This document shows positions 8,480 through 46,179 of a stretch of 64,000 bases of DNA, piece by piece; the first letter of the stretch is position 1, and the number at the start of each line of letters is the position of its first letter. The DNA lies in IMG/VR virus record IMGVR_UViG_3300045988_154277. One strand, given 5' to 3'. A program made the position numbers and the translations under genes. This DNA comes from a virus. Under the pieces are notes generated by a model. The model was not told the origin of the DNA. It did not search any database and saw only the letters and a list, made by a program, of their open reading frames with translations.

Positions 8480-8578
8480 GCATATAGAGAGACTGTGATA
8501 TGGAACTAACGTTGTTCCTTCACTGGTGATCTACTAACGTAGATCTAAGACGTTACGGTGTTGTGTCTCTCTATATGC
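8480..8578. promoter_or_regulatory. compound structured element: 14-bp inverted repeat enclosing two hairpins with CTAACGT loops
   Basis: gcatatagagagac (8480-8493) / gtctctctatatgc (8565-8578); inner hairpins ggaaCTAACGTtgttcc and gatctaCTAACGTagatc. Confidence 0.4.
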
Positions 8579-8785
8579 TTCTGTTGTTAGATCTTCATTG
8601 TACTTATCGATGAATGAAGTACGGATTATGAATGGTATCTTAACTGTAGCTACATATGGTTGGGTTATATAGTTACTACCATAATACCTGGTTAAGATTT
8701 GAGGGTAAGTTGAGGGTAAAATAACGATGGGATAAATCGTCATATGACTATTATATTTACTCTACTAGATCCCATCTATCAACAA

Positions 8786-8824
8786 GTAATATATACGTGA
8801 AATAGACTTCAGTTACACTAAAAG
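8786..8824 (+). promoter_or_regulatory. diverged copy of the AGTWATATAT..GAAA motif (promoter-like family)
   Basis: agtaatatatacgtgaaatagacttcagttacactaaaag aligns to the 33-mer shared by 10355..10387 and 39695..39727. Confidence 0.4.
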
Positions 8825-8833
8825 AGTAAAAGA

Positions 8834-8857
8834 AGAAGACTAGGGTGACTAGTCTTC
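8834..8857 (-). terminator. rho-independent terminator for minus-strand gene 8868..9086
   Basis: gaagactag-ggtga-ctagtcttc followed on the minus strand by UUCUUUUACUCUUUU. Confidence 0.6.
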
Positions 8858-8867: not shown

Positions 8868-9086
8868 TTAGAGAAGATCTTGGATCTTCTCTACTAAGAT
8901 CGCATCGATCAGAAGTTGAGGGATGCTTTTGGTATAGACGAGGATGTAATCACCATCTCTTATCAGATCGTAACCCTCATGCTTATATTGGTTGTAGGAT
9001 GCGATAGCCATCTTCTGATCCATGGTACGTGCTTGACGTTTCAGGATAGCAAGATGAATCGTATTACCCATGGATAGGATCTTCAT
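8868..9086 (-). CDS. hypothetical small protein
   Basis: ORF track 8868..9194; start moved to internal ATG (MKILSMGN..) which has GGAGAT RBS and avoids a 47-nt overlap with 9148..9921. Confidence 0.45.
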   Translation of the reverse strand: MKILSMGNTIHLAILKRQARTMDQKMAIASYNQYKHEGYDLIRDGDYILVYTKSIPQLLIDAILVEKIQDLL

Positions 9087-9147
9087 GGTAGTATCTCCTA
9101 TATAAGAAAAAGAGAAGGTGGTGTAGTACCACCTTCTCGGTTCGATG

Positions 9148-9921
9148 TTAGAAGAGATTGGAGACCGTATCGGAAGCGGTCTCAGCAGCACCATCTCCGC
9201 AGAAGATCTTCTTCACACCGTAGACGATGGCTGCACCAGCAGCCATACCAACGATGACTCCCATCCCGTAGGATGCTCCGATGGTGAAGGCACTCCCAGC
9301 TTCACGAGCCAGGGTGGAACCATGCCGGTCACGTTCAGCGGGCTTGTTGGGATCGGGATGATCTTCCTGTTCCTCTTTGGGAGTGTCCTTCTTGGGTTCT
9401 TCTTTCGGAACATCCTGCTTGGGGTTGGGATCCACTTTCTTGGACTCCTGTTTGGTGTCCTTGGGATCGACCTTCGGTTCCGTCTTGGGCTGTTCCGGGT
9501 TGCCGTTGGTGTTCTTGGTTTCGGTGTTGACTTTGGTTTCTTCCATTTTGGATTCCTCCTGGTTGTGGTTGGTGTTGTTGGGGTTGATGGTTGCGTTGTT
9601 CTTGTTGTCTTCCATTTTGTTTTCCTCTTTTTGGTTAGGGGTTGTATGGGTTGCTTGTTTGGTTGCATGTTCCTGCAGCAGATCTTCCATCTGCTGACCG
9701 ACGTTGATACCGAATGAGTCTCTCGGGACTTCCTCGGTAAACTCCTCCACAGTAACACCTGTGGGGTTGTTCTCTGGATGATCCAGAGAGATCACAACGG
9801 TTCGACCAGTTGTGATGTTCGGCATATGAGCCGGATAGTCCGGTTCAGTAATGCCAGGACCAGTGAGACCTGGTGCCTGGTTTTCGAATGAACCACGGAA
9901 TTTGTGTCGTTTGTGTCCCAT
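9148..9921 (-). CDS. low-complexity Lys/Glu/Pro/Thr/Asn-rich protein with C-terminal glycine-zipper transmembrane helix
   Basis: 257 aa; AAGGAGG RBS; C-term ...GASYGMGVIVGMAAGAAIVYGV; the opposite-strand ORF 9145..9717 is hydrophobic antisense junk. Confidence 0.5.
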   Translation of the reverse strand: MGHKRHKFRGSFENQAPGLTGPGITEPDYPAHMPNITTGRTVVISLDHPENNPTGVTVEEFTEEVPRDSFGINVGQQMEDLLQEHATKQATHTTPNQKEENKMEDNKNNATINPNNTNHNQEESKMEETKVNTETKNTNGNPEQPKTEPKVDPKDTKQESKKVDPNPKQDVPKEEPKKDTPKEEQEDHPDPNKPAERDRHGSTLAREAGSAFTIGASYGMGVIVGMAAGAAIVYGVKKIFCGDGAAETASDTVSNLF

Positions 9922-10059
9922 ATGAGACCTCCTTATGTTAAGTTTTGAATTGGATGCTTATGTCTACCACGCCCTTGTTTAAAAGTATTGATGATCGCGA
10001 TACTTTGAGCGTGGTAGTTGGTCTACCCTACAAAGAAGGCAGACAGAACTAACGATGTT

Positions 10060-10209
10060 ACTTGGCGATCAACAAGTTGTCCATCGTGAGCTGGAATGCT
10101 TTATTTAACGCCTCATACCAGGTGAGGCTGGTCTTAGCCCAAATCTCTTCCCCGATCACATAGATCGGTCTCCTGAGATCCAAGCTGCTGTAGTCAAATT
10201 CTGACATAC
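10060..10209 (-). CDS. hypothetical small protein (49 aa), below ORF-track threshold
   Basis: ATG with AAGGAG RBS 7 nt upstream; MSEFDYSSLDLRRPIYVIGEEIWAKTSLTWYEALNKAFQLTMDNLLIAK. Confidence 0.35.
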
Positions 10210-10257
10210 AGTCTCCTTCTTAGGAAAGTTGTAGAACAACGTCACTCTCCACAACGA

Positions 10258-10293
10258 CCTAACACTAGAGTGTGGTAGCACTCTAGTGTTAGG
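10258..10293. terminator. perfect 15-bp-stem hairpin, terminator-like
   Basis: cctaacactagagtg-tggtag-cactctagtgttagg followed by gtcctttactattact. Confidence 0.4.
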
Positions 10294-10350
10294 GTCCTTT
10301 ACTATTACTGGAGTCGTGATAAGAAGTCATCGCTCTACTAGTATCATAAG

Positions 10351-10387
10351 AGTTATATATATTCGAAATATTTTGAACTACACTTTT
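10351..10387 (+). promoter_or_regulatory. promoter-like element; the 33-mer 10355..10387 is identical to 39695..39727
   Basis: agtTatatatattcgaaatattttgaactacactttt vs agtAatatatattcgaaatattttgaactacactttt; ~60 nt upstream of the ATG at 10449. Confidence 0.6.
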
Positions 10388-10448
10388 AGATAGAGTACTC
10401 TGTGTTGATCCGAGATGCTATGTCCATATACAGAAGGAGGACATAAGC

Positions 10449-10867
10449 ATGAGTGCTAAAATCTACACAAATGGAAAGTGGGTTGATCTTTCCCCTGCTA
10501 CGGGGGGGGGGTAATCAGTCTTGGAGACTCCGTGTTTGAAAACCAATTGTCGTCCGAGAATGGTGTTCGATTCGGATCGCAAGCAACAGCTACATCGTTC
10601 GTTCAAATGTCATTCCGTTATGCTGGAAAATCAGATGCAACAGGAACGGGATACATCGCGGTAGGAGAACAAGATCGATCTGTTGATCCTAAAACGTTTA
10701 CACGAAGAGGATATCTGCTTATCCCCTTGACAGATGCTGGATATTACTCTGTATCCTTTGTAGTATCCGAAGGTATGTATCCTGCGTGGAAGTTTGAAGA
10801 AGGTAAGTCGTTTGGAAACATCCTTACATATATGACCACCACACCACTCACGATCGTATCAAACTGA
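10449..10867 (+). pseudogene. poly-G-interrupted (frameshifted or phase-variable) homolog of the small late gene 58975..59181
   Basis: ATG 10449 frame gives MSAKIYTNGKWVDLSPATGGG* ending right after G10 (10502-10511); frame of ORF 10532..10867 is open back through the G tract; +1 G fuses them into ~139 aa resembling MSKAKIYINGAWVDLGG... of 58975. Confidence 0.6.
10502..10511 (+). repeat. G10 homopolymer followed by TAAT, candidate slippage site
   Basis: cGGGGGGGGGGtaat; same context as the G11 tract at 54082..54092. Confidence 0.8.
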
Positions 10868-10883
10868 TCTCGATATAAAAGAA

Positions 10884-10918
10884 GAACTACAGGGAGTTGG
10901 TTAGACTCCCTGTAGTTC
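10884..10918. terminator. bidirectional hairpin terminator (14-bp stem); U-tract on the minus side
   Basis: gaactacagggagt-tggttag-actccctgtagttc; minus-strand transcript continues UUCUUUUAUAU. Confidence 0.65.
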
Positions 10919-10929
10919 CATATGTTGCA

Positions 10930-13032
10930 TCATCCGTAAAGGTCCATCAGAAGTGTCTTAGTCTCTTTATTGAGATGAGCCACTCCGATGTTGAGTTTGT
11001 TCAGGACTCGATACAGAGCAGAACAGTTGTGATAGATGATCTTCTTGTAATCCACCAAAGGGATGATCTCTTTGGGGATCGCATTCGCAGCTGGGTTGAT
11101 CAGGACGTTGTTCGGGAACTTCTTATGCTGTTCTACGAACTTCATCGTCTCTTGATAGATGGATTTATTCATCTTCTCAAGCTCCTGATAATAACCGGCT
11201 GTAGGGGTGTACAGGGATACGTAAATCACCTTAGCTGGCGGTTGAACATCCCCGTATTTCTTGGCATAAACAGCTTGCCAGAACATCCAAGCGAAGAACA
11301 CAGAGGTTGACTCAGGATCACTGTAATCTCTCTCATACTTCAAGGATGTGATCTGGAGGAACTCTGTTTCTCCACGTTTGATACTATCCATGATGTTGTG
11401 TTCCCACCCAAGTACTTTATCGATCAACTTATTGGCTGATAGCTTCCCTTGGATGGAAGGATACAACACATCGTTCTCGATGAAGTTCTGGATGAAATCA
11501 AGAGAGGTTGAACAGATCGAAGATCCTCTGAGTGTTTGACCTTTGATATCCGCTTTGGGTTTGGGTAGGATTACTCCTTCCTGCACCGCTTGGATCCCAC
11601 AATACGTCTTCTTGATACCGAAGAGCAACATGATGGGATAGAGGAACTCATTCTTCATCGCCAGCACACGACGATGCTCAGGAGATACCCCATGAAGGAT
11701 ACTGTATCGATAGCAAGCGTGACGAACACTATGATGGAGCCAGTAGATCACCAAGGAAGTGATCTGATAACTCTCATCTGTGATGTCATAGTGGATCCCA
11801 CCACGATACCAATCATCCCACTCAGCAGCTGTGAAGATTTCACTATCCGTATCACTGATGATAACGGTGTTCCGCCAGGTCATTTGTTTCTTACGAACCT
11901 CTGGAACATCCGCATCTGTGTTGACGAACGTATCGAACAGGAGATCCAGCATGTGGACTTTCTTCTCGATGCTCTTACAGTAAGCTACCACCTTCGGGAT
12001 CAACTCTGGATGTTCTTCCACGATGATCTTGATCGAGTAGTTGTTGAACTCCTTCGCAAGACCCACTGTTGTGATCGCCAGCACCGTCTCATCTTGTTTG
12101 AAGATATCATCCGCTGTTACATTCGGATCGATCTGTACTTTACTGGTATCGAACACATAGTGGATGAACCCTTTGAAGATCTCAGAGTTGTACCACATGA
12201 TGTGTCTCAGATTACAGTAGTAGAAGAGGAAAGTCACTTCCAATGGGGTGAGTCGACTTACCAGTCGGTCTACAGAAGCCATCTGACAACCAGGACAGTA
12301 CCGATGTAATGTCTCAGTGTAGAAATCGATCAGCTGCATGTGATCGATCATCTTCAGTTTATACTTCTGGATCGCTTGGTTGATCTGATCATCCGAAGGA
12401 CGCAACCTTAAGTTAAGTAGGATGTGGTTCACCAGTTCATCTTCACTGAACCAGGAGAAGTTCCCACCCAACAACTGTTCTGCTACCGTGTATGCTCTTA
12501 CGATCATACAGCGAGCAGCAGATGTGATCGTGTTGTATCCCGGTTTATCATAGAAGATATTGAACGGAGATCCGAATCCTCCAGGTAGACTGTTACAGTT
12601 GATCTTGATCGTAGCTTGCTGATACCAGCAACGCTTCGCTTCCAAGTCATCACCCACCGCTTCTGCAGCAAGTTGTTTCTTCTTAACCTTCTTACGTTCT
12701 TTCAGCTTATCGACGACCATCTCTGCGATGAACGAAGATTGTTCGATCGTTGGTTTGTACATCGATCCAGCTGGTGTGATTACTTTGGATTTTTGTTGAT
12801 TCAAGAACTGGTAGAAATCTTCCTCCACGATCTTCTCATTCCCAGGAGAGACCGTCTTATTGTAAATAACTCGTTTACTCTGATATCGTTCTCGGAAGGT
12901 ATCCTTCAGGAACCGTTTGATCTCATTATCATCTTCAAATCCAGTCATCCTCTTTAGATAGTCATAATGCATCCGCATCGCTTCCTGGAAGATATCGGGT
13001 CTTACTATCTGATCGGTTGTTAGCATATTCAC
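10930..13032 (-). CDS. large hypothetical protein (700 aa) with acidic DTDS / LYPSI motifs of unknown significance
   Basis: Long ORF, balanced composition; ...VIISDTDSEIF...RGGIHYDITDE...NDVLYPSIQ...; no P-loop. Confidence 0.65.
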   Translation of the reverse strand: MNMLTTDQIVRPDIFQEAMRMHYDYLKRMTGFEDDNEIKRFLKDTFRERYQSKRVIYNKTVSPGNEKIVEEDFYQFLNQQKSKVITPAGSMYKPTIEQSSFIAEMVVDKLKERKKVKKKQLAAEAVGDDLEAKRCWYQQATIKINCNSLPGGFGSPFNIFYDKPGYNTITSAARCMIVRAYTVAEQLLGGNFSWFSEDELVNHILLNLRLRPSDDQINQAIQKYKLKMIDHMQLIDFYTETLHRYCPGCQMASVDRLVSRLTPLEVTFLFYYCNLRHIMWYNSEIFKGFIHYVFDTSKVQIDPNVTADDIFKQDETVLAITTVGLAKEFNNYSIKIIVEEHPELIPKVVAYCKSIEKKVHMLDLLFDTFVNTDADVPEVRKKQMTWRNTVIISDTDSEIFTAAEWDDWYRGGIHYDITDESYQITSLVIYWLHHSVRHACYRYSILHGVSPEHRRVLAMKNEFLYPIMLLFGIKKTYCGIQAVQEGVILPKPKADIKGQTLRGSSICSTSLDFIQNFIENDVLYPSIQGKLSANKLIDKVLGWEHNIMDSIKRGETEFLQITSLKYERDYSDPESTSVFFAWMFWQAVYAKKYGDVQPPAKVIYVSLYTPTAGYYQELEKMNKSIYQETMKFVEQHKKFPNNVLINPAANAIPKEIIPLVDYKKIIYHNCSALYRVLNKLNIGVAHLNKETKTLLMDLYG

Positions 13033-13077
13033 CTCTAGTTGTAATATTCAGTCGTATAGGTTGAAACTCTTTCATTG

Positions 13078-13100
13078 AGTAATATATGCTTGAAAGAACG
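13078..13100 (+). promoter_or_regulatory. copy of the AGTAATATAT..TTGAAAG motif ~78 nt upstream of 13156
   Basis: agtaatatatgcttgaaagaacg. Confidence 0.45.
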
Positions 13101-13155
13101 ATGGTGATCCCAAGTCATGCTATGCTTAAACTTGTCTCAACAATAACTTTTACAT

Positions 13156-15742: not shown

Positions 15743-15779
15743 GAACTACACTACGTTGTAATGACGTAGTGTAGTTCTC
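15743..15779 (+). terminator. hairpin terminator (15-bp stem)
   Basis: agaactacactacgt-tgtaatg-acgtagtgtagttct. Confidence 0.55.
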
Positions 15780-20536: not shown

Positions 20537-21553
20537 TTATTTCTTGGAGTTATTGATCTCTTGGATGATCCACTCCGTCATAGAGTAGAACTTAGCATAA
20601 TACTGTTCGATACCAACCAACAGAGATGCAGATGAGTTCATCACATATTGAGTGACGTTGAGCAGAAGCGTGATCGACTCTTCCGCATTCGAACCTTTCC
20701 ACATGTTACTCACATCTCTGATGTTCTCGTACAACGTTTCCATGTTGTCAGCGACCGGTTCGATCTCTTTCATGATGGCGGAGACCAACGCCTCTGCATA
20801 ACGAATCTGAGATCCACCATTCCAACCGAACTCTCTGGGATCAACAGGATCCGGAGATGCCGTTTCGATGATGACTTTGCATCCCTCAGATGTTACAACG
20901 ACACCATCGCGATAGTGCTGGTGATTGATCTCCCTGGCGAACATATCTCTGGCTGAACGGTAGTCTTTGAATACACCGTCTATGGTTTGCTTAGCTTTGG
21001 CTGGATCGCTTTTAACTGCAGCGAATAGACTGTTCAACTTGCTGTACCAGTCTCCGATGTACACAACAAGATTGCGGAGTGCGGTTAATCGCGTAATGAA
21101 CATCTGGTAATCGAATACATTGGGAACTTGCATCCCTTTGGGGAATGATTGGATCATCATGAGTCGGCTGGCGTTCATCTTCTGTTGTTTGTTGGGACGC
21201 AGGAACCATTCTGTGATCTTGTCCATCAGATAACGGAGGAAGTCCAAGATCTTCTGGATGATGTAGTTCGCTTTATCCTTCAGCCAACTTCCCAGGTTAG
21301 CAACATAGATGCTCTTCTTGGAGAACATGTCTTTGCCGTCCAGTTCGTGTTTGCCGATGTGAATGGCCGTTGTGAACGACTCACCACCAACAGAATCGAT
21401 CAACGGTTTGCTGTATCCGAACTCTCGAATGGTCTTCAGTACATTGCGGTGATGTTCGAACGTTGCGAAATCCTCCATGATTGACCGGTACATCTCTTTG
21501 GTTCTCTCTTGGAACTCAAAGATATCCATGTAAATAGGAATAAACATATCCAT
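20537..21553 (-). CDS. hypothetical protein
   Basis: 338-aa ORF. Confidence 0.55.
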   Translation of the reverse strand: MDMFIPIYMDIFEFQERTKEMYRSIMEDFATFEHHRNVLKTIREFGYSKPLIDSVGGESFTTAIHIGKHELDGKDMFSKKSIYVANLGSWLKDKANYIIQKILDFLRYLMDKITEWFLRPNKQQKMNASRLMMIQSFPKGMQVPNVFDYQMFITRLTALRNLVVYIGDWYSKLNSLFAAVKSDPAKAKQTIDGVFKDYRSARDMFAREINHQHYRDGVVVTSEGCKVIIETASPDPVDPREFGWNGGSQIRYAEALVSAIMKEIEPVADNMETLYENIRDVSNMWKGSNAEESITLLLNVTQYVMNSSASLLVGIEQYYAKFYSMTEWIIQEINNSKK

Positions 21554-21568: not shown

Positions 21569-23155
21569 TCAGTTGTTCAGTAGTTGTGAGAGCTTAGCAG
21601 CTCTGAAATAAAGTTTGTTATCCACAAGTTGCTTGGTCTTGTAGATTAGTTGTTCGTACTCTCTTGGGAATCTTCCACTGAGGATCATGCCCACTGGTGT
21701 TTCCACAAGATAACGAAGTAGTTTGGTGAACGCAGTGATACCATCTGCGATACGGTTCGTAATGGAACGGTTATCGAGCGCTTGTAAAGTACTCTCGTAA
21801 TCAGCGATGTAATACGCGAGCATATCGGGAGGAAGGTTCTGCTTGAACACTTTAACAGTCTCCTGCAGAACCAGCTGGCCACGCATCGGCATCTCATCGT
21901 GTTCTTCCAAATGATACATATCACCATTCAGAAGTGTCGTGATGAAAAACGAGAGCTTGGCAACGTTCCAAGCGATACTGCTGTTCTTCGCGAAGATCCC
22001 TGTACCAGCTCTGCTAGCGAGGTTGTAGTCCAGTTTGTTCAGAGAGGACACCAGAGCACTACCGAGTCCGTGTCGTACAACGAACTGATCTGCCAGTCTC
22101 TCACAGAGTTTGAAGTTGTGAACAGAAACTGCTTGATCGGAGAGTTTCTTACTGGATGTGTTCAGTGCGATCAATGTGGACGTATCTCCCATATAAGAGA
22201 ACAGCTGACTCAATACGGCGAATGGGATCGTTGCTATCATAGCAGCATCCATGATCGCCGAGATCAAAATGCCGAATCCATCAAGGATGTAAGCTCCAGC
22301 AGAGTCTTTTCTATTTTGCAACAGATCATCGGTCTTATCAACAGCGTCTGGTGTATGATGGATCTTACTCAACTCAATCACCATCTTGGCTTTTTCCTCA
22401 ACGGTAGCGTGTTGATTGAAATACTCATAAGCAGTCATAACCGTTCCCATCCGCATACACCCATCCAGAGCATGTTCTAACATGGAGTGAAGATGTCCGA
22501 TCTCATGGATGACGATAGCAGCGATCTCTTCTGCTGTAAATGGTTGACATTTGTTATGTCCGACTTCCTGGATCAAAAAAGAAGCGAATGGATCGAAGTA
22601 CAACGTGAACGATACCTTACGACCATCGTAGAGATGATCGATTGCATAGATACCGGTATCCTTACGAAGTGAATTCACAAGGTTCTGGATGTCCTTGACG
22701 GTGGTACAGCGTAGGTCGTACTGCTTAATGATCCATTGATAATACTTCTGCATACCAGTACCGGAATACGAATCGATGAACATCTGAGCATTCCAACCGT
22801 AACGGTCACCAATATCCATCACACAAGCGAACCCGTAGTTGATCCCATTGGAGAGAACGATCTTCCTACAGTTCAACCCGGTGGTCTCTTTGACCAGTTT
22901 GCTGAACCTTGGATAGAAGATCTTTTTGGTGTAAGCGATCGTCTCTTTGACACGATCTTGGATAGAGGTGTTGATGTTGTTCCTGTAATTGATAATATCT
23001 TGAAACAGTTCAACCAACCCTTTCGTCAAAGGAGAACTACGTTGGAAGTCGATCGCTTCCAACGAAGGATATAATCTTGACATAGTGGAAAGTTCCTTCT
23101 GTAGTTTAAGTATAGCATGTGCTGGAAGTGTTGTGAATACACACACCATAAACAA
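21569..23155 (-). CDS. putative zinc metallopeptidase (HExxH; M48/M56-like with hydrophobic segment)
   Basis: 528 aa; IVIHEIGHLHSMLEH; hydrophobic stretch ILISAIMDAAMIATIPFAVL. Confidence 0.55.
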   Translation of the reverse strand: MFMVCVFTTLPAHAILKLQKELSTMSRLYPSLEAIDFQRSSPLTKGLVELFQDIINYRNNINTSIQDRVKETIAYTKKIFYPRFSKLVKETTGLNCRKIVLSNGINYGFACVMDIGDRYGWNAQMFIDSYSGTGMQKYYQWIIKQYDLRCTTVKDIQNLVNSLRKDTGIYAIDHLYDGRKVSFTLYFDPFASFLIQEVGHNKCQPFTAEEIAAIVIHEIGHLHSMLEHALDGCMRMGTVMTAYEYFNQHATVEEKAKMVIELSKIHHTPDAVDKTDDLLQNRKDSAGAYILDGFGILISAIMDAAMIATIPFAVLSQLFSYMGDTSTLIALNTSSKKLSDQAVSVHNFKLCERLADQFVVRHGLGSALVSSLNKLDYNLASRAGTGIFAKNSSIAWNVAKLSFFITTLLNGDMYHLEEHDEMPMRGQLVLQETVKVFKQNLPPDMLAYYIADYESTLQALDNRSITNRIADGITAFTKLLRYLVETPVGMILSGRFPREYEQLIYKTKQLVDNKLYFRAAKLSQLLNN

Positions 23156-23198: not shown

Positions 23199-23330
23199 AA
23201 GTCGTTATCATCTCAGATGATACCACACAGTAACATATAGTTCCCTATATGACATCGTGTGATCTCATGCCTGATTAGGTCATCAGACATGTGTTTCATT
23301 ACAATGTACCACATGTGTTCCTCCTTGTTG

Positions 23331-24674
23331 TTATAGTTTTGATTTGATCTGTTTTATCACGTCCCGAACCCAACGACGATCTTCTTCGTTTAAGTATTCA
23401 CGGTAATATTTCTGTTCTATCTTCTCTACCAGATCCTCTTCCTTTTTTTGGTTATTTGGGGCTTTGTCCCATTGCGCTAAGAACAGGTGATAACACTCGT
23501 GTACGATAGTTCCCATAAAACTATCTATTTGATCCTTTGTGGCGTTACCGGATGGACCCCACATGTTACTGTACAATCTGTAATTGACATATATGTCTAC
23601 AGAGCCAGACATGTTGTTCTTAGCATAACACCAACCGTACGGAGGGCGTTCTTCAGCAGTATCGTCGCTAAGACCCCACGTCATAGGTCTACGATTTGTT
23701 ATAATTACATTTCGGACAGTAACAGATCCTCCAAAGAGGTGCTCCATCTTCTTTAGGATATGTGATGGGATCTTAACAGTAACCTCTACTGGTATATCTC
23801 GATTAAACAATCTATCTATATCCAATAGATACGATACACCGATAGAGCATAGTTCAGTCGATGCTCGTGATATGGTTGTGACTATCAGTATAACTTGTTT
23901 GACACCATCCTGTATCCCGACATCCATAATGTCATCTCTAAAGATGTCATTCGCTTGTTTTGATATACCTAATATCGCCTCTTTGAATTCTTCTTTCGTC
24001 ATATCGTCTGATATTGTTAACTTAAATTCTTCCAATGCGAATACTAGGGTATCTGAAAGGAGTGCTATGTGACCAAGATCACTTGCTATTGATCTTGCCA
24101 GATCACGAACATCTCCACGGCGATAACCAACAACTCCCTTTTGTTTTTCACAAAGCTGATGTGCTTTATCAACGTAACTATCTAGTTTTCGTTTAAAAGC
24201 ATCAAATGGTGTTGATTTACATCTAGTACGCATGAACACATGGGCATCAGTGAATACTTCTGCTACCTCATCCATATATTTATACGGTATTAGTATAACA
24301 CCATCTCTAGCTTGAGACATAAGTAAGAAAAGATCACTCATACTCTTCTTTACGAAATCAGAGTTACTCGTCTTAGGTGTTTCTTTGATACCAAGTACTT
24401 TACACACCTTATGCCGAATAGCACCGAAGAACTTCTTAACAGCAGCAATCAGTTGGTTGATTTTCTCTTTCAACCAACTGATGAACTTACTGATCGCTTC
24501 TTTCGCTTGATCAACTAAGCTCTCTTCACCTATTAGTTCACGGAAGTGTTCTGTGTAACCATACTTGTTATAGTAGTTGACCACAACGCATGCGTTGTGA
24601 TACACATCGTAACCTTGTATGATTTGGTTACAGATAGTGTTGATATCGTTTAGGTATTTTAATTCAGTTTCCAT
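23331..24674 (-). CDS. hypothetical protein with C-terminal HExxH motif (SprT/metallopeptidase-like)
   Basis: 447 aa; ...FMGTIVHECYHLFLAQW... Confidence 0.5.
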   Translation of the reverse strand: METELKYLNDINTICNQIIQGYDVYHNACVVVNYYNKYGYTEHFRELIGEESLVDQAKEAISKFISWLKEKINQLIAAVKKFFGAIRHKVCKVLGIKETPKTSNSDFVKKSMSDLFLLMSQARDGVILIPYKYMDEVAEVFTDAHVFMRTRCKSTPFDAFKRKLDSYVDKAHQLCEKQKGVVGYRRGDVRDLARSIASDLGHIALLSDTLVFALEEFKLTISDDMTKEEFKEAILGISKQANDIFRDDIMDVGIQDGVKQVILIVTTISRASTELCSIGVSYLLDIDRLFNRDIPVEVTVKIPSHILKKMEHLFGGSVTVRNVIITNRRPMTWGLSDDTAEERPPYGWCYAKNNMSGSVDIYVNYRLYSNMWGPSGNATKDQIDSFMGTIVHECYHLFLAQWDKAPNNQKKEEDLVEKIEQKYYREYLNEEDRRWVRDVIKQIKSKL

Positions 24675-25482
24675 GTTCTAGATCCTCTTTAAGTAATTCA
24701 TCCCAATAAGTATCGGTTGCGATGTCGTTGTCTTTTACCATAGCCTCGTATGGGATAGACCTGATCAGCTCCAGTTGCTCTTTGGTCAACAGTTCTTTGG
24801 AACAGTGCCAGCTCCGAAAGTAGTTGAAACGTGCTTTTGTGTGAAACTTCATATAGAGCCAGACAGTGTTGTTGTCTTCTGCTCTTTCGATGACCAGACG
24901 GTCACCTTCTTTGAGTCGTGCAAATTGCTCCAGGAACGCTTTGCAGTTGCAGAAACTCAGCTCACCGGCACTTACCCGGATCATCTTGCATTGCCATTCC
25001 AGAATCTCAAGCCTCCGAAGCTGCTCTCCCTCCAAATTGGATTTATGAAAAGAATGGGTTTCCGTGATGGCTTCGGGACCATTCATCAAATATCGTCTTA
25101 CGACGATAGTCACCGTGTTATAGTCTTCTTTGAAAGATACCAGATCAACACGCTGATGATCCGCCACATACAACAGTTGATAACAGAGCGATTCAAACTC
25201 ACTCTGTTCCGCACGTTTGTTTGCCAGCTTAAGTTGCTCTTCCTTGATTCGGACGATCCGTTCTGCGTTCAGATGTTTCTTTTGGAATGTATATGCAACA
25301 TCATAGGTGGGTAAGCTGATACCATCATGTTCTTTCCGAACGATGATCTCGAACTTGTCATCGAACTCCTGTATGCTGGTGATATAGATGTGCTTGATCA
25401 TATCATTCTGAGTTCGATCAATGTCGCGGATAACTGTGTCGAACAGTTTAGTAGACGAGGGTTTTTCAGAATGGTAAAACAT
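24664..25482 (-). CDS. hypothetical protein
   Basis: 272-aa ORF overlapping neighbour by 11 nt. Confidence 0.5.
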   Translation of the reverse strand: MFYHSEKPSSTKLFDTVIRDIDRTQNDMIKHIYITSIQEFDDKFEIIVRKEHDGISLPTYDVAYTFQKKHLNAERIVRIKEEQLKLANKRAEQSEFESLCYQLLYVADHQRVDLVSFKEDYNTVTIVVRRYLMNGPEAITETHSFHKSNLEGEQLRRLEILEWQCKMIRVSAGELSFCNCKAFLEQFARLKEGDRLVIERAEDNNTVWLYMKFHTKARFNYFRSWHCSKELLTKEQLELIRSIPYEAMVKDNDIATDTYWDELLKEDLEHGN

Positions 25483-25552
25483 GCGTGACTCCTTTATGAT
25501 TGTTCTTATTGGATGTTTGATGGTTATATCAATTCGATGATATACTTCAATT

Positions 25553-25572
25553 AGTTATATATACTTCAAAAG
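25553..25572 (+). promoter_or_regulatory. copy of the AGTTATATATA..TTCAAAAG motif
   Basis: agttatatatacttcaaaag. Confidence 0.4.
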
Positions 25573-25607
25573 ACCTTCATTTACACCTGCTATACTGGAC
25601 ATAAAGA

Positions 25608-25643
25608 CTGTACACGTGATGGTTTTATCCATCACGTGTACAG
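25608..25643. terminator. 15-bp-stem hairpin downstream of minus gene 25683..27782
   Basis: ctgtacacgtgatgg-ttttat-ccatcacgtgtacag. Confidence 0.5.
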
Positions 25644-25682
25644 TAGGGTAGACCTCTAATAGTCCTATACTAGAACCTTAGA

Positions 25683-27782
25683 TCAAAGCCATCTGAAAAG
25701 ACGGTCTTGGTTCAGTTCTTTCTCAGCCGATTCGTTGGGGATGGTCTCCGGGGGAGTCTCCACAACTTCACGGTGGGGTTCGGTCACAGCGTTCGGAACT
25801 TCCGGATCGCCGTTGGGATCGACGCCAGGAGCTGGTTCCTCCACAGGCTTCGGTTCACCTTCACCACCAGGAAGACCTTCCGGTTCCACAACACCAGCTT
25901 CGTTGGTCAGAGCAGGCTGCGGGGGAACGAGAGGTTCTTCTTCGATCGGAGAACCATCCGGGTTGACAGGGCTCACCGGAGGAGTGACTTCCGGGTCAAC
26001 GGGAGCAGGAGTTGCAGGTTCCGCAGGAGGAACGATGGGTTCTTCCACAACGGTACCTTCCGGAGTGACGGCAGGTTCCCCTTCGTTCCGATAGACACGA
26101 CGACGATTGGTCGGGTTGCCAGCGGACGGAGCCGGTTCACCACCGACAGGACCTTCCGTGCCTTCTTCCAGAGCACCAGCCGGATCCGCATTGCCATCAC
26201 CAGACTTGCCTTCCCCTTCCGTATCGTCCGGAAGCGTGCTCGCCGGGTCTTCCATCTGTTTCTCAGGTTCGAACTCATGCTCGGTCACATCACCACCCTG
26301 GAACTCATTGAAGACGCGACGACGATTGGTCGCATCACCAGTGGTGGAAGATGCACTTGGTTCGTTGCCGGAGGTCGGAGCAGGATCGCCTTTGCCTTCT
26401 CCTTCGCTTTCATCGGGGAGGGTACCAGCAGGATCATCCATCTGTTCTTCCGGTTTGAACTCATGTTCCGTGACATCGCCGCCTTCGAACTCGTTCTTGG
26501 CATGACGACGGACTTTGCCTCTGCGTTTGTTACCGAGAGGTTTCTGCTCGGTGACTTCTTCCACAGGAGTTGCAACCGGAGCCTGTTCTGGAACTTCGGC
26601 TTTCTTCAGCTTACCGCACATCGCGACAACCTGGTCAACCATGTGGCTGCAAGCCGTTCCATAAAGCTGAGCCACCGTACCAACCGTGGCAGCGAACTTA
26701 CGGCACTCTTCGATTTCACCATCCGCCTTCGCATCACCTTCCATCGCGTTGATCTGTTCGACTTTCGCACAGACATCATCTTTGCATTTACAGACAACGT
26801 CTTTGGCTTTGGCGATGTTCTCACATTTGCCGATCACAGCAGCGAGAGCAAGAGTCGCTTCTTTCAGGTTCGCAGGAGTCCAACGGAAGACCGCCATCTC
26901 CTGTTCCTGAGGAGCATCGGCAGGACCTTCGACCGGGATCGCTTCCGCCGTCTCGCGCTGTTCCAGATCTTCCTGAGACTTACCTTCTTCAGCAGCCGGA
27001 GTTTCGGCGACAGGAGCAGACATCACTTCTTCCGGAGCAGGAGCTTCCGCCTCTGCTACAGCAGGAGACTCTTCCACGATCGCGACCTTCTCTTCGACCT
27101 GATAACCGAGTGTCTTGAGAGCCGGTTCGATCTCAGCAAGCTTGGCGGGATCCAGAGTCGGCATCGCAGCATTGATCGTTTCCAGAGCTTTGATGCGTTC
27201 CATGAACACAGGCTGAGTAAATCCGAAGACTTCGTCCGTAGCGAACGCAGCCGCATCGATCGCTTCGATGTTGCCGAGCAGATCGTTGGCAAGGTCGTTC
27301 AGAGTTTCCTGCTGACATTTGGAAGTTTCACAGAGTTTGTCGAGGTAATCGCAAACGGTGTGAGCCAGGGAGTGGAAGAACTCACAGACTTTGGCATACG
27401 CATTCTCAACGACGTTGTCGATGCCTTCGCAGCAGAGTTTGCCGACCTGACGAGTATTGAGAGAGGTGACGTTCGGGATTTCGATGCCGATCGCATTCGC
27501 AAGCTGGTTGCCGTCATTGAAGACCGCAAGCAGACCTTCCGTAGCGCCGTGCTCTGTGAACAGAGCTTTCGCCTGTTTCAGAGTGGCAACCGCATCATAG
27601 ACCGCTTTGTCCTGGCAGATGATACGGCTGATCTTGTTGCCCTTCATTTCAAGGGCAACTTGACAGTTCTGCATGTTGGCGAGATGGATCCAGAAGAACC
27701 CCTTGCTGACAACTTTCTTCGCAGTAGAGTGCTGCTTGGGAGCAAGGATGCTCTTGAGATTGAGGTTGATTCCGTTACTCAT
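25683..27782 (-). CDS. acidic Pro/Glu/Gly/Ala-rich protein with tandem ~60-aa repeats
   Basis: 699 aa; repeats NEFEGGDVTEHEFKPEEQMDDPAGTLPDESEGEGK...NRRRV x2; the opposite ORF 25707..27827 is Arg-rich antisense. Confidence 0.6.
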   Translation of the reverse strand: MSNGINLNLKSILAPKQHSTAKKVVSKGFFWIHLANMQNCQVALEMKGNKISRIICQDKAVYDAVATLKQAKALFTEHGATEGLLAVFNDGNQLANAIGIEIPNVTSLNTRQVGKLCCEGIDNVVENAYAKVCEFFHSLAHTVCDYLDKLCETSKCQQETLNDLANDLLGNIEAIDAAAFATDEVFGFTQPVFMERIKALETINAAMPTLDPAKLAEIEPALKTLGYQVEEKVAIVEESPAVAEAEAPAPEEVMSAPVAETPAAEEGKSQEDLEQRETAEAIPVEGPADAPQEQEMAVFRWTPANLKEATLALAAVIGKCENIAKAKDVVCKCKDDVCAKVEQINAMEGDAKADGEIEECRKFAATVGTVAQLYGTACSHMVDQVVAMCGKLKKAEVPEQAPVATPVEEVTEQKPLGNKRRGKVRRHAKNEFEGGDVTEHEFKPEEQMDDPAGTLPDESEGEGKGDPAPTSGNEPSASSTTGDATNRRRVFNEFQGGDVTEHEFEPEKQMEDPASTLPDDTEGEGKSGDGNADPAGALEEGTEGPVGGEPAPSAGNPTNRRRVYRNEGEPAVTPEGTVVEEPIVPPAEPATPAPVDPEVTPPVSPVNPDGSPIEEEPLVPPQPALTNEAGVVEPEGLPGGEGEPKPVEEPAPGVDPNGDPEVPNAVTEPHREVVETPPETIPNESAEKELNQDRLFRWL
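26100..26520 (-). repeat. tandem ~190-bp coding repeat inside 25683..27782 (approximate bounds)
   Basis: gaactcatg(c/t)t(c/c)gg(t/g)(c/g)acatc(a/g)cc(a/g)cc...gaactc(a/g)tt repeated. Confidence 0.5.
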
Positions 27783-27813
27783 AATCCTATTCCTTTGTAT
27801 AAGGTGAAATGTT

Positions 27814-28779
27814 TCAGTTTACTGTGAGTATATTGTTCCACGTATCGATAAGCATACCGCTCATCTGTGTTACATAGGATTGAAAGACGACCGCACATTT
27901 GAACACGTAGCTGGCACGTAAGCTCTTGTTGTTGAGCTCGTATTGCAGCTGTTGTGCACCTGCATCATCTCCCAATGCGATGTATTTATCGATCGTACGG
28001 ATGGAAGCGGTTACATCGTTCTCCAACGAGTTCTTCAGATCGTTCAGTTCAGCAGCTTGTGTACAAAGCATCGCAACACGATTGGTGATCTGTTTCAGAT
28101 GCTCCACGGACCAGTCACTGCTCTTCATCGTCATACGACCTGCTCTGATCTTGTAAGGATTCACTTCATAGATCACTCCGTCTTTGACCGTGTATCCGAA
28201 TTGGGTGATCCCTGTTTTGAAGGTAGCAGCATCTTGGATCGAAGGAACTTTAGACAACTCCATCACGTCGTGATAGAGGATCTCGAGACTACTGATCACT
28301 TCAACCGACTCCTTATAAGTAGGAAGATAAAGATCGACAGTCTGCAACTTCAGATCAGCGTCGTTGGATCGATTCTTATCGAACTCTCTCTGCAGGTTGT
28401 AGAGAGTCGTCCTCGTTCTGGAGTTCGTATCGAACATCCGTTTGAAGAACGCTACGATGCTAGCCCACAGATTCATGAAGAAGTTCTTAAGTGACAGAAG
28501 TGCATTCCGGAACATCGATGACAGTCCTTCCTGAGAACTGTTCATCAGTTTCTCACTTCCCAGAGCATCTCGGAGCACGATATCCTTCATACCCGCATAA
28601 TCGATCAAAGAGTGGATATTGAAGGTCTTCAAGATCTCATCCTGAATGGCGTGGAAGTTGTTTACAACAACACGTTCCAAGTCATCCATAGTGGAGATCT
28701 GAGAAGCGAGTTCTTCGATCGACCAGTTGCAGATAGGAGGAGGCGCTGGGAATGCTTGTTTCAAAGCGTTCGTGATCAT
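27814..28779 (-). CDS. hypothetical protein (operon of four)
   Basis: 321 aa; stop/start overlap with the next gene. Confidence 0.55.
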   Translation of the reverse strand: MITNALKQAFPAPPPICNWSIEELASQISTMDDLERVVVNNFHAIQDEILKTFNIHSLIDYAGMKDIVLRDALGSEKLMNSSQEGLSSMFRNALLSLKNFFMNLWASIVAFFKRMFDTNSRTRTTLYNLQREFDKNRSNDADLKLQTVDLYLPTYKESVEVISSLEILYHDVMELSKVPSIQDAATFKTGITQFGYTVKDGVIYEVNPYKIRAGRMTMKSSDWSVEHLKQITNRVAMLCTQAAELNDLKNSLENDVTASIRTIDKYIALGDDAGAQQLQYELNNKSLRASYVFKCAVVFQSYVTQMSGMLIDTWNNILTVN

Positions 28780-29726
28780 ACCTCAGTATCCTCCATAGTC
28801 AGATGATCCTGGAGATATTTGGTGTATGCATACAGGGTTTCCAGTGTTTCCACATTGGAGATATCCGCTTGCTGGATAGGAAGATCCAGATCGGTATCCG
28901 TATCCAGACAGATCAGATGAGTCATCTTGAGAAGACCGTATTTGACCGTGAATCGACTGGATGCTTCCCGGAGTTCCTGTTTCATCCAACCCCAACGGAA
29001 TGCACTGGACGGAAGTTTCAGAACATCTTCTTTGCGTTCGATCTTCGCCTGATGTGCGATCAGAAGGAGAACCTTCAGATACTCGATCACCGCTTGGATC
29101 TTCGTATGGTAGTCCACAGCGATGCTGTCGTTGCTGTTCGTCTTCTGGAAACAGCCTTTGATCTTCTCATCCACGATGTCCATGAAGAGGAGGAATCGTT
29201 CCTGTGGGATCAGATACTTTGAGATATCGAAATCCTGGTTCCAAGTCTGGAACCACTCTTCACTGTTCCTCAGGAGAGAAGATTTGAATGCATTGAACTG
29301 AAGCGTATCGTCCGCACCAGGATCTTGTTTGTGGAGCAAGAGCAGGTTGTTGAACATCGTCAAACTGTTCGTCGGAATAGAGAACGGGTAGTTCTTGTTC
29401 TTCTCAGCGAGGGAACGCCAACGTCTGGAGATCTTGCTGATTACATTGAACAAGCTCTGGTAAACGAACACCTTGATCGCCTGCTGATACGAAGTGGCCA
29501 GTTCTCGGAGTTGCTCATCGTTCAAGTTCGTGATATCACGACGATACACATCAGCGTAGATCCGCATCATGTTCTCATCGAACGACGGAGTAACATCTCC
29601 GATGTTCCACACCGCTACCATATCGCAGATCCACTGGAACTCCACATATCTGCGTTGTGACATCTGAGCGGTCATGGTAGCAACCTGAGCTGCTCGTTTT
29701 AATCCAATATCGAATCCCATGATCAA
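28776..29726 (-). CDS. hypothetical protein
   Basis: 316 aa; ATGA overlap on both sides. Confidence 0.55.
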   Translation of the reverse strand: MIMGFDIGLKRAAQVATMTAQMSQRRYVEFQWICDMVAVWNIGDVTPSFDENMMRIYADVYRRDITNLNDEQLRELATSYQQAIKVFVYQSLFNVISKISRRWRSLAEKNKNYPFSIPTNSLTMFNNLLLLHKQDPGADDTLQFNAFKSSLLRNSEEWFQTWNQDFDISKYLIPQERFLLFMDIVDEKIKGCFQKTNSNDSIAVDYHTKIQAVIEYLKVLLLIAHQAKIERKEDVLKLPSSAFRWGWMKQELREASSRFTVKYGLLKMTHLICLDTDTDLDLPIQQADISNVETLETLYAYTKYLQDHLTMEDTEV

Positions 29727-30679
29727 TCCTCCATATAGCTGCTGATCTTGAGATCGAGATCTCGGATCATATCGTTATAAGTGTTGATGATCTTCACAGC
29801 TTTCCGGTATTCATCGCTGTTGGGATCAATACCATTCAGCTGAAGTTTCAGAAGGTCAGTGTGGTTCTGCAACCACTCTTTCTCCTGGACCATCTTCTGG
29901 TATTTCAGGTTGCGCATCAGAACACCCCACTCTCCGAAATAACGGAAGATAGAGGCGAGGATCGTAGCGCCACCCTCGATGAGACCGAACTTGTTCTTGA
30001 CGGTCTTGATCATATCGTTCACTCGATCCTGATCATCGAGCAACGTTGTATCGCTTGACTTGCGAAGAGTATCGATCTCGGTGATCAATTGATTCGCACT
30101 GGATGGCAGAGAACCAACCTTAAGCAGTTCAACAACGCCGAGTTTATACTTGTTGATGAACTCATACCGATATGGTTTCGGTTGGTTGAGTTCATGAACA
30201 CCTTCATTGACGATGATCTCGTACAACACTCCATCGAACAGATAAACAGCGTAGTTGCTGAAGATCTGTGCCTGTTCCACGATACGGAACACCGCCAGCT
30301 GGCTGACTTTCGCATTGTAGATCGTAGTGAACTTCTCGTTGAAGAGAACATTCACATTACGTTCGATCATCTGAAGAACCGTTGTAAGGTTCTGAGCAAG
30401 CATAACGAACGGATCGAATCCAACCTTCTGAGAGCGCAACAGCTTGTTGATCTCTACACAAGTGTTGCAGAAGAGGTTGCCTGGAACGGCGAATGTATTG
30501 ATCCTCTGAGAGAACTGTTCCTTATCCGATCCAGTAATGTTGTTAAGTGTATTGATGAAGTTGGTAAGCTGTCCCTCAACCAGTTTAAGATTCTCTTTGA
30601 AGTCTTCTTTCGAGATCTTCCGCATCTTCTTGGATTCGACAGCAACCACTTCACCTACGTCTTTCAATATATCTCGCAT
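29723..30679 (-). CDS. hypothetical protein
   Basis: 318 aa. Confidence 0.55.
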   Translation of the reverse strand: MRDILKDVGEVVAVESKKMRKISKEDFKENLKLVEGQLTNFINTLNNITGSDKEQFSQRINTFAVPGNLFCNTCVEINKLLRSQKVGFDPFVMLAQNLTTVLQMIERNVNVLFNEKFTTIYNAKVSQLAVFRIVEQAQIFSNYAVYLFDGVLYEIIVNEGVHELNQPKPYRYEFINKYKLGVVELLKVGSLPSSANQLITEIDTLRKSSDTTLLDDQDRVNDMIKTVKNKFGLIEGGATILASIFRYFGEWGVLMRNLKYQKMVQEKEWLQNHTDLLKLQLNGIDPNSDEYRKAVKIINTYNDMIRDLDLKISSYMED

Positions 30680-30692
30680 AGTGGCTACTCCT

Positions 30693-31772
30693 TTAGAATC
30701 TGGGACTCATACCCTGGGAGAAAGTCTGCATGATCTCTGCGAGATTGAAGCTGTCCTTCCCCTTGGCTCCCACTTTATTCAACATCTGGAACGTGTAAGT
30801 TCCCTTCACGTCGATGCCGTTGAAATACATATCGACGGTTCCACCCATCACGTCGACAACAACCACGAAGATCGCCATCGTCTTCAACATGAAACTCTGA
30901 CGATAACCTTTGTCTGCAAAGTTCGCACCGACCTCTTTGCAAGCTTCGGTAAAGGTTGGTTTGTCCATGATGATCATGGAGTTCGCCAAGTTTCCGGATG
31001 TGGGTTTCATACCGATCAGGCGAAGTGCCCAGTTGAAAAGCTTATTGTGCTGGTTGGTAAGGATCGCAGCCAGAACACCGGACTTGTCTTCCTTCAGGAG
31101 TTTTTCCTGCTTCTTGAGCAGGTCTCTGGAGAGCATGAAGTCGTTCCAGAAACTGATCTCCTTCGCCTCCACCTGTTTCCAACGAACGGACATCGGCGGA
31201 TGGAAGTTGATGTTCATGAAACCTTTGCAGATGTTGGAAGACAAGATGATCGGGATCAGCTGGACATACACGTATACTTTAAACGTGTTCACCTTGCCGC
31301 CCCCTTCAAGCGTAAGATCGACCTCCAAAAGACGTCCGGTAACCAGTCGCTGGCTGTCCTTCTCCAGGTCCACCACTTGTGACTCCATAGAGACGTTCAT
31401 CTCTTTGATCGTGGAGTTCAGAGTCTCCTGACCGAAGTCATCCGCGATGATCGTGACGGTATCTTGAAGGGTTTCTGTGGCGATGATACCGTACAGTTCT
31501 TTCACCGTCTTTCCGCCAACCACTACATTTTGCATATTCAAAGCGGTCATGATGTAGCTAGCATAAAGCTGGTTCAGGGTACCGAGCAACGGTAACGCGA
31601 TGTCGTCTTGAGCGACACTTTCCTGCAGATACACTCGACTGATGATGTTCGCAGGTTTGTTCATTTGTGTCAGCGATACTGTCTGCATCTCGTTGACCTT
31701 ATTCACACCTTGTGCGACGATCTTCAAGATTTCAGACAGTCCTGCTGGCAGCAGATCTGGGATAGAAGCCAT
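30693..31772 (-). CDS. hypothetical protein (start moved to MASIPDLL with GAGGAT RBS)
   Basis: ORF track 30693..31838; second ATG has gtgaggatatttcatATG. Confidence 0.55.
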   Translation of the reverse strand: MASIPDLLPAGLSEILKIVAQGVNKVNEMQTVSLTQMNKPANIISRVYLQESVAQDDIALPLLGTLNQLYASYIMTALNMQNVVVGGKTVKELYGIIATETLQDTVTIIADDFGQETLNSTIKEMNVSMESQVVDLEKDSQRLVTGRLLEVDLTLEGGGKVNTFKVYVYVQLIPIILSSNICKGFMNINFHPPMSVRWKQVEAKEISFWNDFMLSRDLLKKQEKLLKEDKSGVLAAILTNQHNKLFNWALRLIGMKPTSGNLANSMIIMDKPTFTEACKEVGANFADKGYRQSFMLKTMAIFVVVVDVMGGTVDMYFNGIDVKGTYTFQMLNKVGAKGKDSFNLAEIMQTFSQGMSPRF

Positions 31773-31904
31773 ATGAAATATCCTCACTTTGCGGGATAAA
31801 ATACCCCTTGATTTTGTGGATTCAATGCAGCATAGCATGTCCAGGAACGCACCCTCAACTATGAGATGCTAGACTCTATTATTCCTTAATATAAGGAGAC
31901 AACC

Positions 31905-39191: not shown

Positions 39192-39690
39192 GGTTTGATT
39201 CCTTTTGTTAAGGGTTGTTGGGTTGAGCTAAGATATGGAGAAGAACGAAGGTTCGTATCGTTGTCACTAACACAACGATCTTCTCCTTCGAATCTTCGAC
39301 TTGTTTACTACACGAATGACTTTTGTACAAAACTAGACTATGTAAACACACTATGAGAGAGGTTAGTGTCTCATATGTGTTAAATGAACGTTACCGACCG
39401 ACTCTTGTCGGTATGTACAACAATACGAATTAGTTCGTCGGATATTCGGTACCACAACGAACTTCGTACTGTATTACTGCAACTGCACGCTGCATCGCGT
39501 CAAGAACATCTTGTCCTTCACGCAGGAACTGGTTTAACAGTTCGTAATAACGTTGATGAAACGTCTTCACGTAGTCACCTCCTTTCTTGATGTTAGTGTA
39601 CAGAGTGTAGATGCGTCAACATCTACACTCTGTACACGGTTATCAGTTTGACACATCTCTAATTAGACATGTCTTCGGTATTATCAATAA

Positions 39691-39727
39691 AGTAATATAT
39701 ATTCGAAATATTTTGAACTACACTTTT
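39691..39727 (+). promoter_or_regulatory. promoter-like element; the 33-mer 39695..39727 is identical to 10355..10387
   Basis: agtaatatatattcgaaatattttgaactacactttt. Confidence 0.6.
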
Positions 39728-39743
39728 CAAGACAGTCGATGGT

Positions 39744-46040: not shown

Positions 46041-46071
46041 ATCAGTGCCTTTCTGTTGAAGTATTACACTT

Positions 46072-46093
46072 AGTTATATATAGTTGAAGTTCG
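46072..46093 (+). promoter_or_regulatory. copy of the AGTTATATATA..TTGAAG motif ~100 nt upstream of tail fiber gene
   Basis: agttatatatagttgaagttcg. Confidence 0.45.
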
Positions 46094-46179
46094 TTTGGCA
46101 TAGAACAGCCGGGTCAACTACTTTCCTATATGACATCCTATGCATAATTGTTATTTCGACTTCAACTAGGAGGGCCGCA

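Follow-up and report, generated by a model that had tools for sequence, protein, structure and literature searches.

Candidate minus-strand early promoters of phiKZ type in a 64-kb window of an uncultivated gut jumbo phage

Six AT-rich elements in the window (the whole stretch of 64,000 nt analysed here) are very probably minus-strand early-class promoters of a phiKZ-like (Chimalliviridae-type) jumbo phage. The observations concern the motif and the strand it lies on, where it stands relative to genes and terminators, how far relatives conserve it and how well it matches phiKZ sites. This type of early promoter is already known from phiKZ-like jumbo phages; the six elements are new members of it and bring no new mechanism. 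A preliminary description had proposed a phage-specific promoter class on the plus strand. That the elements are a class and not a chance repeat stands, but the strand, the target genes and the reading of the nearby hairpins given there do not.

Aligned on the minus strand, the six copies read (GTGTAR-N)-TTTCRAR-TATATATWACT-N3-4-TGA. A promoter of this build would consist of a TTTCRAR block (preceded by GTGTAR in four copies), a nearly invariant TATATATWACT core with its centre near -10, and a TGA 3-4 nt past the core, where transcription probably starts. The core is TATATATWACT in five copies and CATATATTACT in one. TTTCRAR stands directly upstream of it in every copy (diverged in two, TTTGAAG and CTTCAAC), the TTCAAA and GTGTAR blocks are found in 4/6, and TG(A) falls 4-5 nt past the C of the core in 6/6 window copies and in most copies in relatives. 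The family had earlier been read as AGTWATATATR followed by TTGAAA, always on the plus strand. Its four diverged copies are indeed present at the places given for them (8785-8795, 13078-13088, 25553-25563 and 46072-46082), with the TTGAAA part approximate only (GTGAAA, TTGAAA, TTCAAA, TTGAAG). All copies do share one strand, but the motif reads on the minus strand: the reverse complement of AGTWATATATA is TATATATWACT, and TTGAAA is the reverse complement of the known TTTCAA block.

The putative promoters, their targets and the features beside them are as follows (PolB, family B DNA polymerase; L001 and similar labels denote loci of relatives).

8779..8820, minus strand: candidate early-type promoter, copy 8785-8795, AGTGTAACTGAAGTCTATTTCACG-TATATATTACT-TGT-TGA; promoter stretch identical in L001.
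8534-8743, minus strand: 69-aa ORF, target of copy 8785-8795; predicted leader about 36 nt, terminator 8835-8857 upstream.
8835..8857, minus strand: intrinsic terminator of gene 8868-9194, a stem and then TTCTTTTACT.
10344..10387, minus strand: copy A, candidate extended early-type promoter, AAAAGTGTAGTTCAAAATATTTCGAA-TATATATAACT-CTTA-TGA; core 10351-10361, 33-mer 10355-10387, predicted start G/A at 10345/10344; on its upstream side the 489-bp insert and then the PolB terminator.
10058-10207, minus strand: 49-aa ORF with AAGGAG ribosome-binding site, target of copy A; predicted leader about 137 nt.
10388..10876, plus strand: genome-specific insertion of 489 bp with ORF 10449-10867, split by a G10 run (10502-10511).
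10883..10919, minus strand: PolB terminator, directly upstream of copy A in L001, L135, L140 and L141.
13072..13110, minus strand: candidate early-type promoter, copy 13078-13088, core CATATATTACT and then CAA-TGA.
10930-13026/13032, minus strand: PolB, target of copy 13078-13088; predicted leader about 40-46 nt, divergent region upstream.
25547..25589, minus strand: candidate early-type promoter, copy 25553-25563, GGTGTAAATGAAGGTCTTTTGAAG-TATATATAACT-AAT-TGA.
24664-25482, minus strand: 272-aa ORF, target of copy 25553-25563; predicted leader about 65 nt, terminator 25607-25644 upstream.
24664-25482, 23331-24674, 21569-23155 and 20537-21553, minus strand: the operon behind copy 25553-25563, of which the 272-aa ORF is the first gene.
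25607..25644, minus strand: intrinsic terminator with 16-bp stem, of gene 25683-27782.
39684..39727, minus strand: copy B, candidate extended early-type promoter; core TATATATTACT at 39691-39701, predicted start 39685/39684.
39430-39570, minus strand: 46-aa ORF with AAGGAGG ribosome-binding site, target of copy B; predicted leader about 114 nt, divergent region upstream.
46066..46105, minus strand: candidate early-type promoter, copy 46072-46082, core TATATATAACT and then AAG-TG; identical in L002.
44739-46040, minus strand: DHH phosphoesterase, target of copy 46072-46082; predicted leader about 26 nt, divergent region upstream.

All six window copies are intergenic with a co-oriented minus-strand gene downstream, and the predicted leaders measure 26-65 nt in four copies and 114-137 nt in the two exact ones. 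Just upstream of two copies (8785 and 25553) lie the minus-strand terminators of the preceding genes, of which 25683-27782 is placed on the minus strand by codon statistics. Targets are ORFs without family matches, PolB and the DHH phosphoesterase; PHROGs and Pfam searches of about 35 ORFs mostly gave no family, and Rfam and tRNA scans of the window gave nothing. Within the window the motif is absent from the internal-head-protein operon (25683-31838, minus strand) and from all plus-strand virion and tail genes.

With up to one mismatch, TATATATWACT matches seven places in the window where 1.28 would be expected; every one of them is on the minus strand, and none of the shuffles reached seven. 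The shorter TATATWAC has seven minus-strand copies and no plus-strand copy in the window, 6/7 of them intergenic though intergenic DNA is only 7% of the window. This 8-mer alone is not over-represented (seven seen, about six expected from base composition); the family signal is the longer motif with its strand and position, not the 8-mer count, and the repeat family is real and non-random. A seventh site with one mismatch (TATATGTTACT, 23229-23239, minus strand), in the gap between 23331-24674 and 21569-23155, was set aside as it lies upstream of a terminator-like hairpin and not of a gene; it is probably a degenerate or chance match. An IMG/VR scan with a degenerate 14-base pattern (TATATATWACTN{3,4}TGAT) gave single-match stretches on many contigs, among the matches listed, and was dropped as a genome-wide count of the motif.

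Copies A and B share a 33-mer, ATATATATTCGAAATATTTTGAACTACACTTTT on the plus strand, which is found exactly twice in the whole 64-kb window, at 10355-10387 and 39695-39727; no third copy occurs there at up to three mismatches. The preliminary description had reported this pair correctly, as well as the agreement at 36 of 37 nt once the flanking AGT(T/A) is added. It had also held an exact 33-mer to be beyond chance in 64 kb, which agrees with a chance expectation of 0 and 0 matches in dinucleotide shuffles (n=100). Around the 33-mer there is a weaker likeness, 77% over 77 nt (10320-10396 versus 39660-39736). DNA likeness of the two copies ends about 35 nt past the predicted start, and the small ORFs behind them were rejected as paralogues for this reason. 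The 33-mer is the stretch from about -42 to -10 of the two copies nearest the family consensus, and copy B equals copy A from about -42 to the core. Since phiKZ also has early promoter pairs that are identical over at least 45 nt (e.g. 70339/246707 and 2665/4516), exact identity between copies is a normal trait of the early-promoter class.

Published work describes the early promoters of jumbo phages that encode RNA polymerases as highly conserved AT-rich elements of about 10 nt, centred at -10 and found bioinformatically upstream of early operons (PMC7598289). Reports give 28-32 early promoters with the AT-rich element at -10 and the start 6 nt downstream (PMC7598289, PMC8244752, PMC5312081), and further conservation at -20 and -30 (PMC11512511, PMC8244752). 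The early consensus is TATATTAC in phiKZ (PMC7058600), TTTRARR_BTATATTACDWHDGTG, that is TTTRARR-B-TATATTAC-N5-TG, in 201phi2-1 (PMC7058600), TTTYARRYAKATATTAT in OBP/N1M2 (PMC7058600, Table 2) and AAATATATATTAT-N6-G(+1) in AR9 (PMC5312081). In the phiKZ genome, the plus strand has 26 copies of TATATTAC with AT-rich DNA upstream, most of them followed by N5-TG, and the copy before gp54 is a site named early in the literature. A 41-nt weight matrix was made from phiKZ sites only and used to scan both strands of the window. Its top four of 128,000 positions were 39699 (copy B, 23.0 bits), 10359 (copy A, 18.6 bits), 8793 (third) and 25561 (fourth), all on the minus strand; the maximum in shuffles was 8.8 bits. 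The window motif agrees with the early consensus over about 30 nt, and the consensus of phiKZ, 201phi2-1, OBP and AR9 is matched in the minus-strand orientation only.

Further likenesses were checked directly in the phiKZ sequence. The core octamer TATATTAC of the phiKZ early promoters (Ceyssens 2014, as given in PMC8244752 and PMC7598289) is shared, with A or T at position 6 in the window; TG lies 4-5 nt past the core, at the same spacing as in phiKZ in the two exact copies; and an upstream TTCAAA...ATATTT block is common to both. In both phages the elements are intergenic, co-oriented with genes, directly after terminators and present as multiple near-identical extended copies. The window phage is nevertheless very distant from phiKZ (PolB 23% identical). 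Its core is longer (TATATATWACT), its TG is 1 nt nearer the core in 4/6 copies, and a GTGTAR block near -37 takes the place of the GTATT/CACTA block of phiKZ. The DNA polymerase gene is a direct target in the window, whereas in phiKZ it is not directly behind the early motif. The leaders of the two exact copies are unusually long, strongly structured and followed by small ORFs, whereas phiKZ 5' UTRs are mostly 31-40 nt.

The consensus sequences of the early promoters, predicted or mapped, of 201phi2-1 (TTTRARR-B-TATATTAC-N5-TG) and OBP/N1M2 (TTTCARRYAKATATTAT) fit TTTCRAR-TATATATWACT-N3-4-TGA block for block (PMC7058600, PMC11512511), although 201phi2-1, OBP and N1M2 are Pseudomonas/Klebsiella phages, 201phi2-1 with transcript data, and the window belongs to an uncultivated gut phage known from sequence. 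AR9 shares an AT-rich core (TATATATTA) with its centre at -10, a start at a constant 6 nt past it and, as a trait listed as common, extreme sensitivity to single core changes (PMC5312081); it differs in a core that ends in TAT, not TAC, in a uracil-containing genome and in not being a nucleus-forming phiKZ-type phage. Promoters of T7-type single-subunit polymerases are likewise long, near-identical, multi-copy and phage-specific, and span the start site, but their sequence is unrelated to the window motif, and no single-subunit polymerase gene was found among the large window ORFs tested. The window has six motif copies in 64 kb, against about 28-41 genome-wide in phiKZ and AR9.

On sequence grounds, the window comes from an uncultivated, distant phiKZ-like (Chimalliviridae-type) jumbo phage of the human gut, as follows from its PolB family, its tblastn matches, the contigs of its relatives and its gut metagenome matches. 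PolB (ORF 10930-13032, minus strand) is a 'divergent family B DNA polymerase' (PF20286, E 4e-105). Looked up as an exact protein it gave no record, probably since its true start is two codons downstream of the listed one. The only tblastn matches of PolB and of the 1442-aa ORF 33407-37735 are to phiKZ-like jumbo phages (23-29% identity), and the phiKZ proteins matched by the window are gp50 (PolB), gp87 and gp89, the last an inner-body protein. When 9000-12000 was compared with phage records by megablast, no match was found. Relatives found through PolB are contigs of 194-331 kb, and a search with the extended element finds contigs from human-gut metagenomes as long as 279 kb (UONW01000014.1, 279,059 bp).

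No RNA polymerase subunit was found in the 64-kb window or in L001, and phmmer with four large unannotated ORFs against PDB sequences gave no RNA polymerase or other match. phiKZ gp80, which RefSeq annotates both as an RNA polymerase subunit and as a structural head protein, has homologues in L003-L006 that lie 7-10 kb from PolB (29-37% identity, E 1e-46 to 1e-51); they were seen only in relatives with PolB 53-86% identical. phiKZ gp180, searched against a set of 5.8 billion proteins, found close phiKZ relatives only, among the matches listed (at least 120). Judged by the gp80 homologues, the lineage encodes at least one virion-polymerase-type subunit, and this exact genome presumably does as well.

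The start point, the early timing and the polymerase that reads the elements are inferred by analogy with phiKZ, 201phi2-1, OBP and AR9. The elements would be recognized by the phage's own multisubunit virion RNA polymerase. Injected with the DNA, this enzyme would transcribe the minus-strand non-structural genes immediately after infection, and the early genes so transcribed would include the small ORFs, the family B DNA polymerase and the DHH phosphoesterase.

Relatives keep both the elements and their layout. Copy A is kept in L001, L135, L138, L140, L141 and L143, with differing DNA upstream among these loci, and copy B in L002, L136, L139 and L144. Between the window and its 97% relatives there are 0-1 substitutions in the promoter stretch and many in the first 50 nt of the leaders. 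TATATWAC stands co-oriented upstream of PolB or its abutting short gene in L001 and L003-L006, with PolB identity falling from 97% in L001 to 86, 76, 59 and 53% in the others; it stands 218 nt from the gene start in L006 and 41-58 nt from it in the other four. Over L003-L006 it is intergenic in 16/21 cases, with about 9% of the sequence intergenic, and 14 of those 16 are on the PolB strand. Ten copies lie 29-64 nt upstream of co-oriented genes and three more at 104-218 nt; the targets include PolB, DNA ligase and gyrase B. A 32-mer of the element has 13 metagenomic copies in four genomic contexts, two of which (C and D) are outside the window. All 13 are in the minus-type orientation; a ribosome-binding site and an ORF come after at least 12 of them.

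In L001 (a 97% relative) the segment 10388-10876 with its plus-strand ORF is absent and the element adjoins the PolB terminator, the breakpoint being the exact end of the 33-mer, which is also where the 489-bp insertion of the window begins. L135, L140 and L141 are arranged as L001, and L138 has a different insert at the same spot. By comparison of these natural variants, the element reaches upstream to about -42. What lies between the PolB terminator and copy A varies among close relatives: the window has the 489-bp plus-strand cassette there and L138 (509-1180) a 189-aa minus-strand gene that brings its own terminator, and L001, L135, L140 and L141 have nothing.

The plus-strand reading, by which AGTWATATATR..TTGAAA would drive genes 60-110 nt downstream, a tail-fibre gene included, and the copies at 8786 and 25553 would give short antisense or attenuated RNAs, is extremely unlikely. 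It is true that four copies are in divergent intergenic DNA and have plus-strand genes 60-110 nt to their right, but every copy has a minus-strand gene downstream in the other orientation as well, the known consensus is matched on the minus strand only, and in relatives the motif is co-oriented with the genes downstream. The hairpins at 8835-8857 and 25607-25644, formerly taken as marks of antisense or attenuated transcripts, carry their T-tails on the minus strand and are terminators of the preceding minus-strand genes. In L001, L135, L140 and L141 no plus-strand gene follows copy A, its plus side holding only the PolB terminator and antisense PolB. Because ORF 10449-10867 is absent there, copy A cannot exist to drive it. 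The plus-strand neighbours, for their part, carry their own ATGCTATG-type element nearer their start codons.

10415-10422, plus strand: ATGCTATG motif (cATGCTATGc), 27 nt upstream of ORF 10449.
13117-13124, plus strand: ATGCTATG motif, before 13156.
54914-54921, plus strand: ATGCTATG motif, before 54968.
61331-61338, plus strand: ATGCTATG motif, before about 61377.
31831-31838, minus strand: ATGCTATG motif at the head-protein operon 31838, overlapping the listed ATG.

These five copies compare with 1.5 expected in the window, and each is at, or at most about 50 nt upstream of, the start of a likely co-oriented plus-strand or structural gene. Variants are ATGGTATG at 39739-39746 (TGGTATG before 39765) and CCTATG at about 46140, before 46181, and L003 and L004 keep the motif in the divergent region at PolB. 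The motif is similar to the late TATG(+1) promoter of phiKZ, and the plus-strand neighbours probably use this separate, late-type element, for which the sequence is suggestive and not proof.

Other features of the plus-strand genes were noted. Plus-strand ORFs are broken by two poly-G runs, G10 (10502-10511) and G11 (54082-54092), with TAAT after each run. With one more G, 10449-10514 and 10532-10867 become a single ORF of 139 aa; with one G fewer, 52237-54099 and 54170-54478 become one of 746 aa. Across the run, each of the corrected proteins has the sequence GGGVI. The runs could stem from a homopolymer sequencing error, from phase variation or from programmed slippage. Genes 46181-47538 and 61289-62677, called tail-fibre by the earlier reader, share 161 nt at 71% (46211-46371 versus 61404-61564). 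The N-terminal peptide of the cassette ORF (10449), KIYTNGKWVDL, recurs at the start of ORF 58975-59181.

Other minus-strand readings were weighed against a virion polymerase. Many phages use the host polymerase early in infection, and TATATT and TATATA resemble a -10 hexamer, so that the elements might be AT-rich extended -10 boxes read by host sigma-70 RNA polymerase. This is quite unlikely, since a consensus scan (-35/-10 hexamers 16-18 nt apart) found no site on either strand at the five copies covered, the TTCAAA block is 12-14 nt from the best -10-like hexamer where 16-18 nt are needed, and sigma-70 promoters have neither an invariant AC-T behind the hexamer nor a fixed TGA. The lineage also encodes a homologue of a virion RNA polymerase subunit, and the same architecture is used independently of the host polymerase in phiKZ (PMC7598289, PMC13282480). 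It is also unlikely that the elements belong to another temporal class, either middle promoters of a non-virion RNA polymerase or sites that also need a phage transcription factor. Timing is not readable from sequence, and a DNA polymerase gene is among the targets while phiKZ has no early motif directly before its own; against this, the middle and late motifs of phiKZ differ (the former weak, TACT/A-rich and near -22, the latter a TATG at the start site), the early consensus is matched over roughly 30 nt, and a separate TATG-type motif stands before other window genes.

It is highly improbable that the elements have a primary role other than that of promoters, be it as a dispersed repeat maintained through recombination or gene conversion, or as a target or boundary of cassette insertion. 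The exact identity of two copies 29 kb apart would fit such a repeat, as would the genome-specific inserts of the window (10388-10876) and of L138, both of which begin right where the 33-mer ends. However, only promoter-like positions are kept in the four diverged copies, no terminal inverted repeats or target duplications were seen, and the layout holds in relatives down to 53% PolB identity with unrelated flanking DNA. The inserts themselves lie upstream of an intact element, which fits a neutral spot between terminator and promoter.

With the six elements taken as early-class promoters, the leaders of the two exact copies deserve separate mention, as each contains a long hairpin.

10258..10293, minus strand: 15-bp perfect hairpin without T-tail, in the predicted 137-nt leader of copy A.
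39596..39637, minus strand: 19-bp hairpin (z = -7.0), in the predicted 114-nt leader of copy B.

The copy A leader folds at -55 kcal/mol (z = -6.0), and L001 keeps the stem of its hairpin with a changed loop; the copy B hairpin has a compensatory U:A to A:U change in L002 and L139. Both were rejected as terminators, having no T-tail on either strand and not being flagged as such. In L136, a relative at about 80%, a hairpin that does have a T-tail comes about 110 nt after the same promoter, with no obvious ORF. It is conceivable, though doubtful, that the identical extended copies (two or more) are a special immediate-early module, with an abundant short structured RNA or a tiny peptide as its main product in place of an ordinary mRNA. 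Such a module would, just as tentatively, combine the strongest promoter variant, about 30 nt of shared initial transcribed sequence and a long perfect hairpin; were it real, host takeover or anti-defence would be candidate roles for its product.

The 8-mers most enriched intergenically belong to hairpin stems with GTGTAC/GTACAC or GAACTACA/TGTAGTTC in common, e.g. those at 15743-15777, 25607-25644, 39596-39637, 40069-40106, 44050-44080, 44675-44700 and 10883-10919. One arm of the hairpin at 15743 is the word GAACTACAC, which also occurs in the 33-mer. The shared stem words suggest a common stem sequence preference or a common terminator origin.

Read as early promoters, the six elements give a strand-correct map of predicted early transcription units in the window of an uncultivated gut phiKZ-like jumbo phage. 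Early genes are the usual place of host-takeover and anti-defence functions. Since the architecture of TTTCARR, TATATTAC and N5-TG is kept almost unchanged between phages with PolB only about 23% identical, the motif should be usable to predict early genes in metagenomic jumbo phages.
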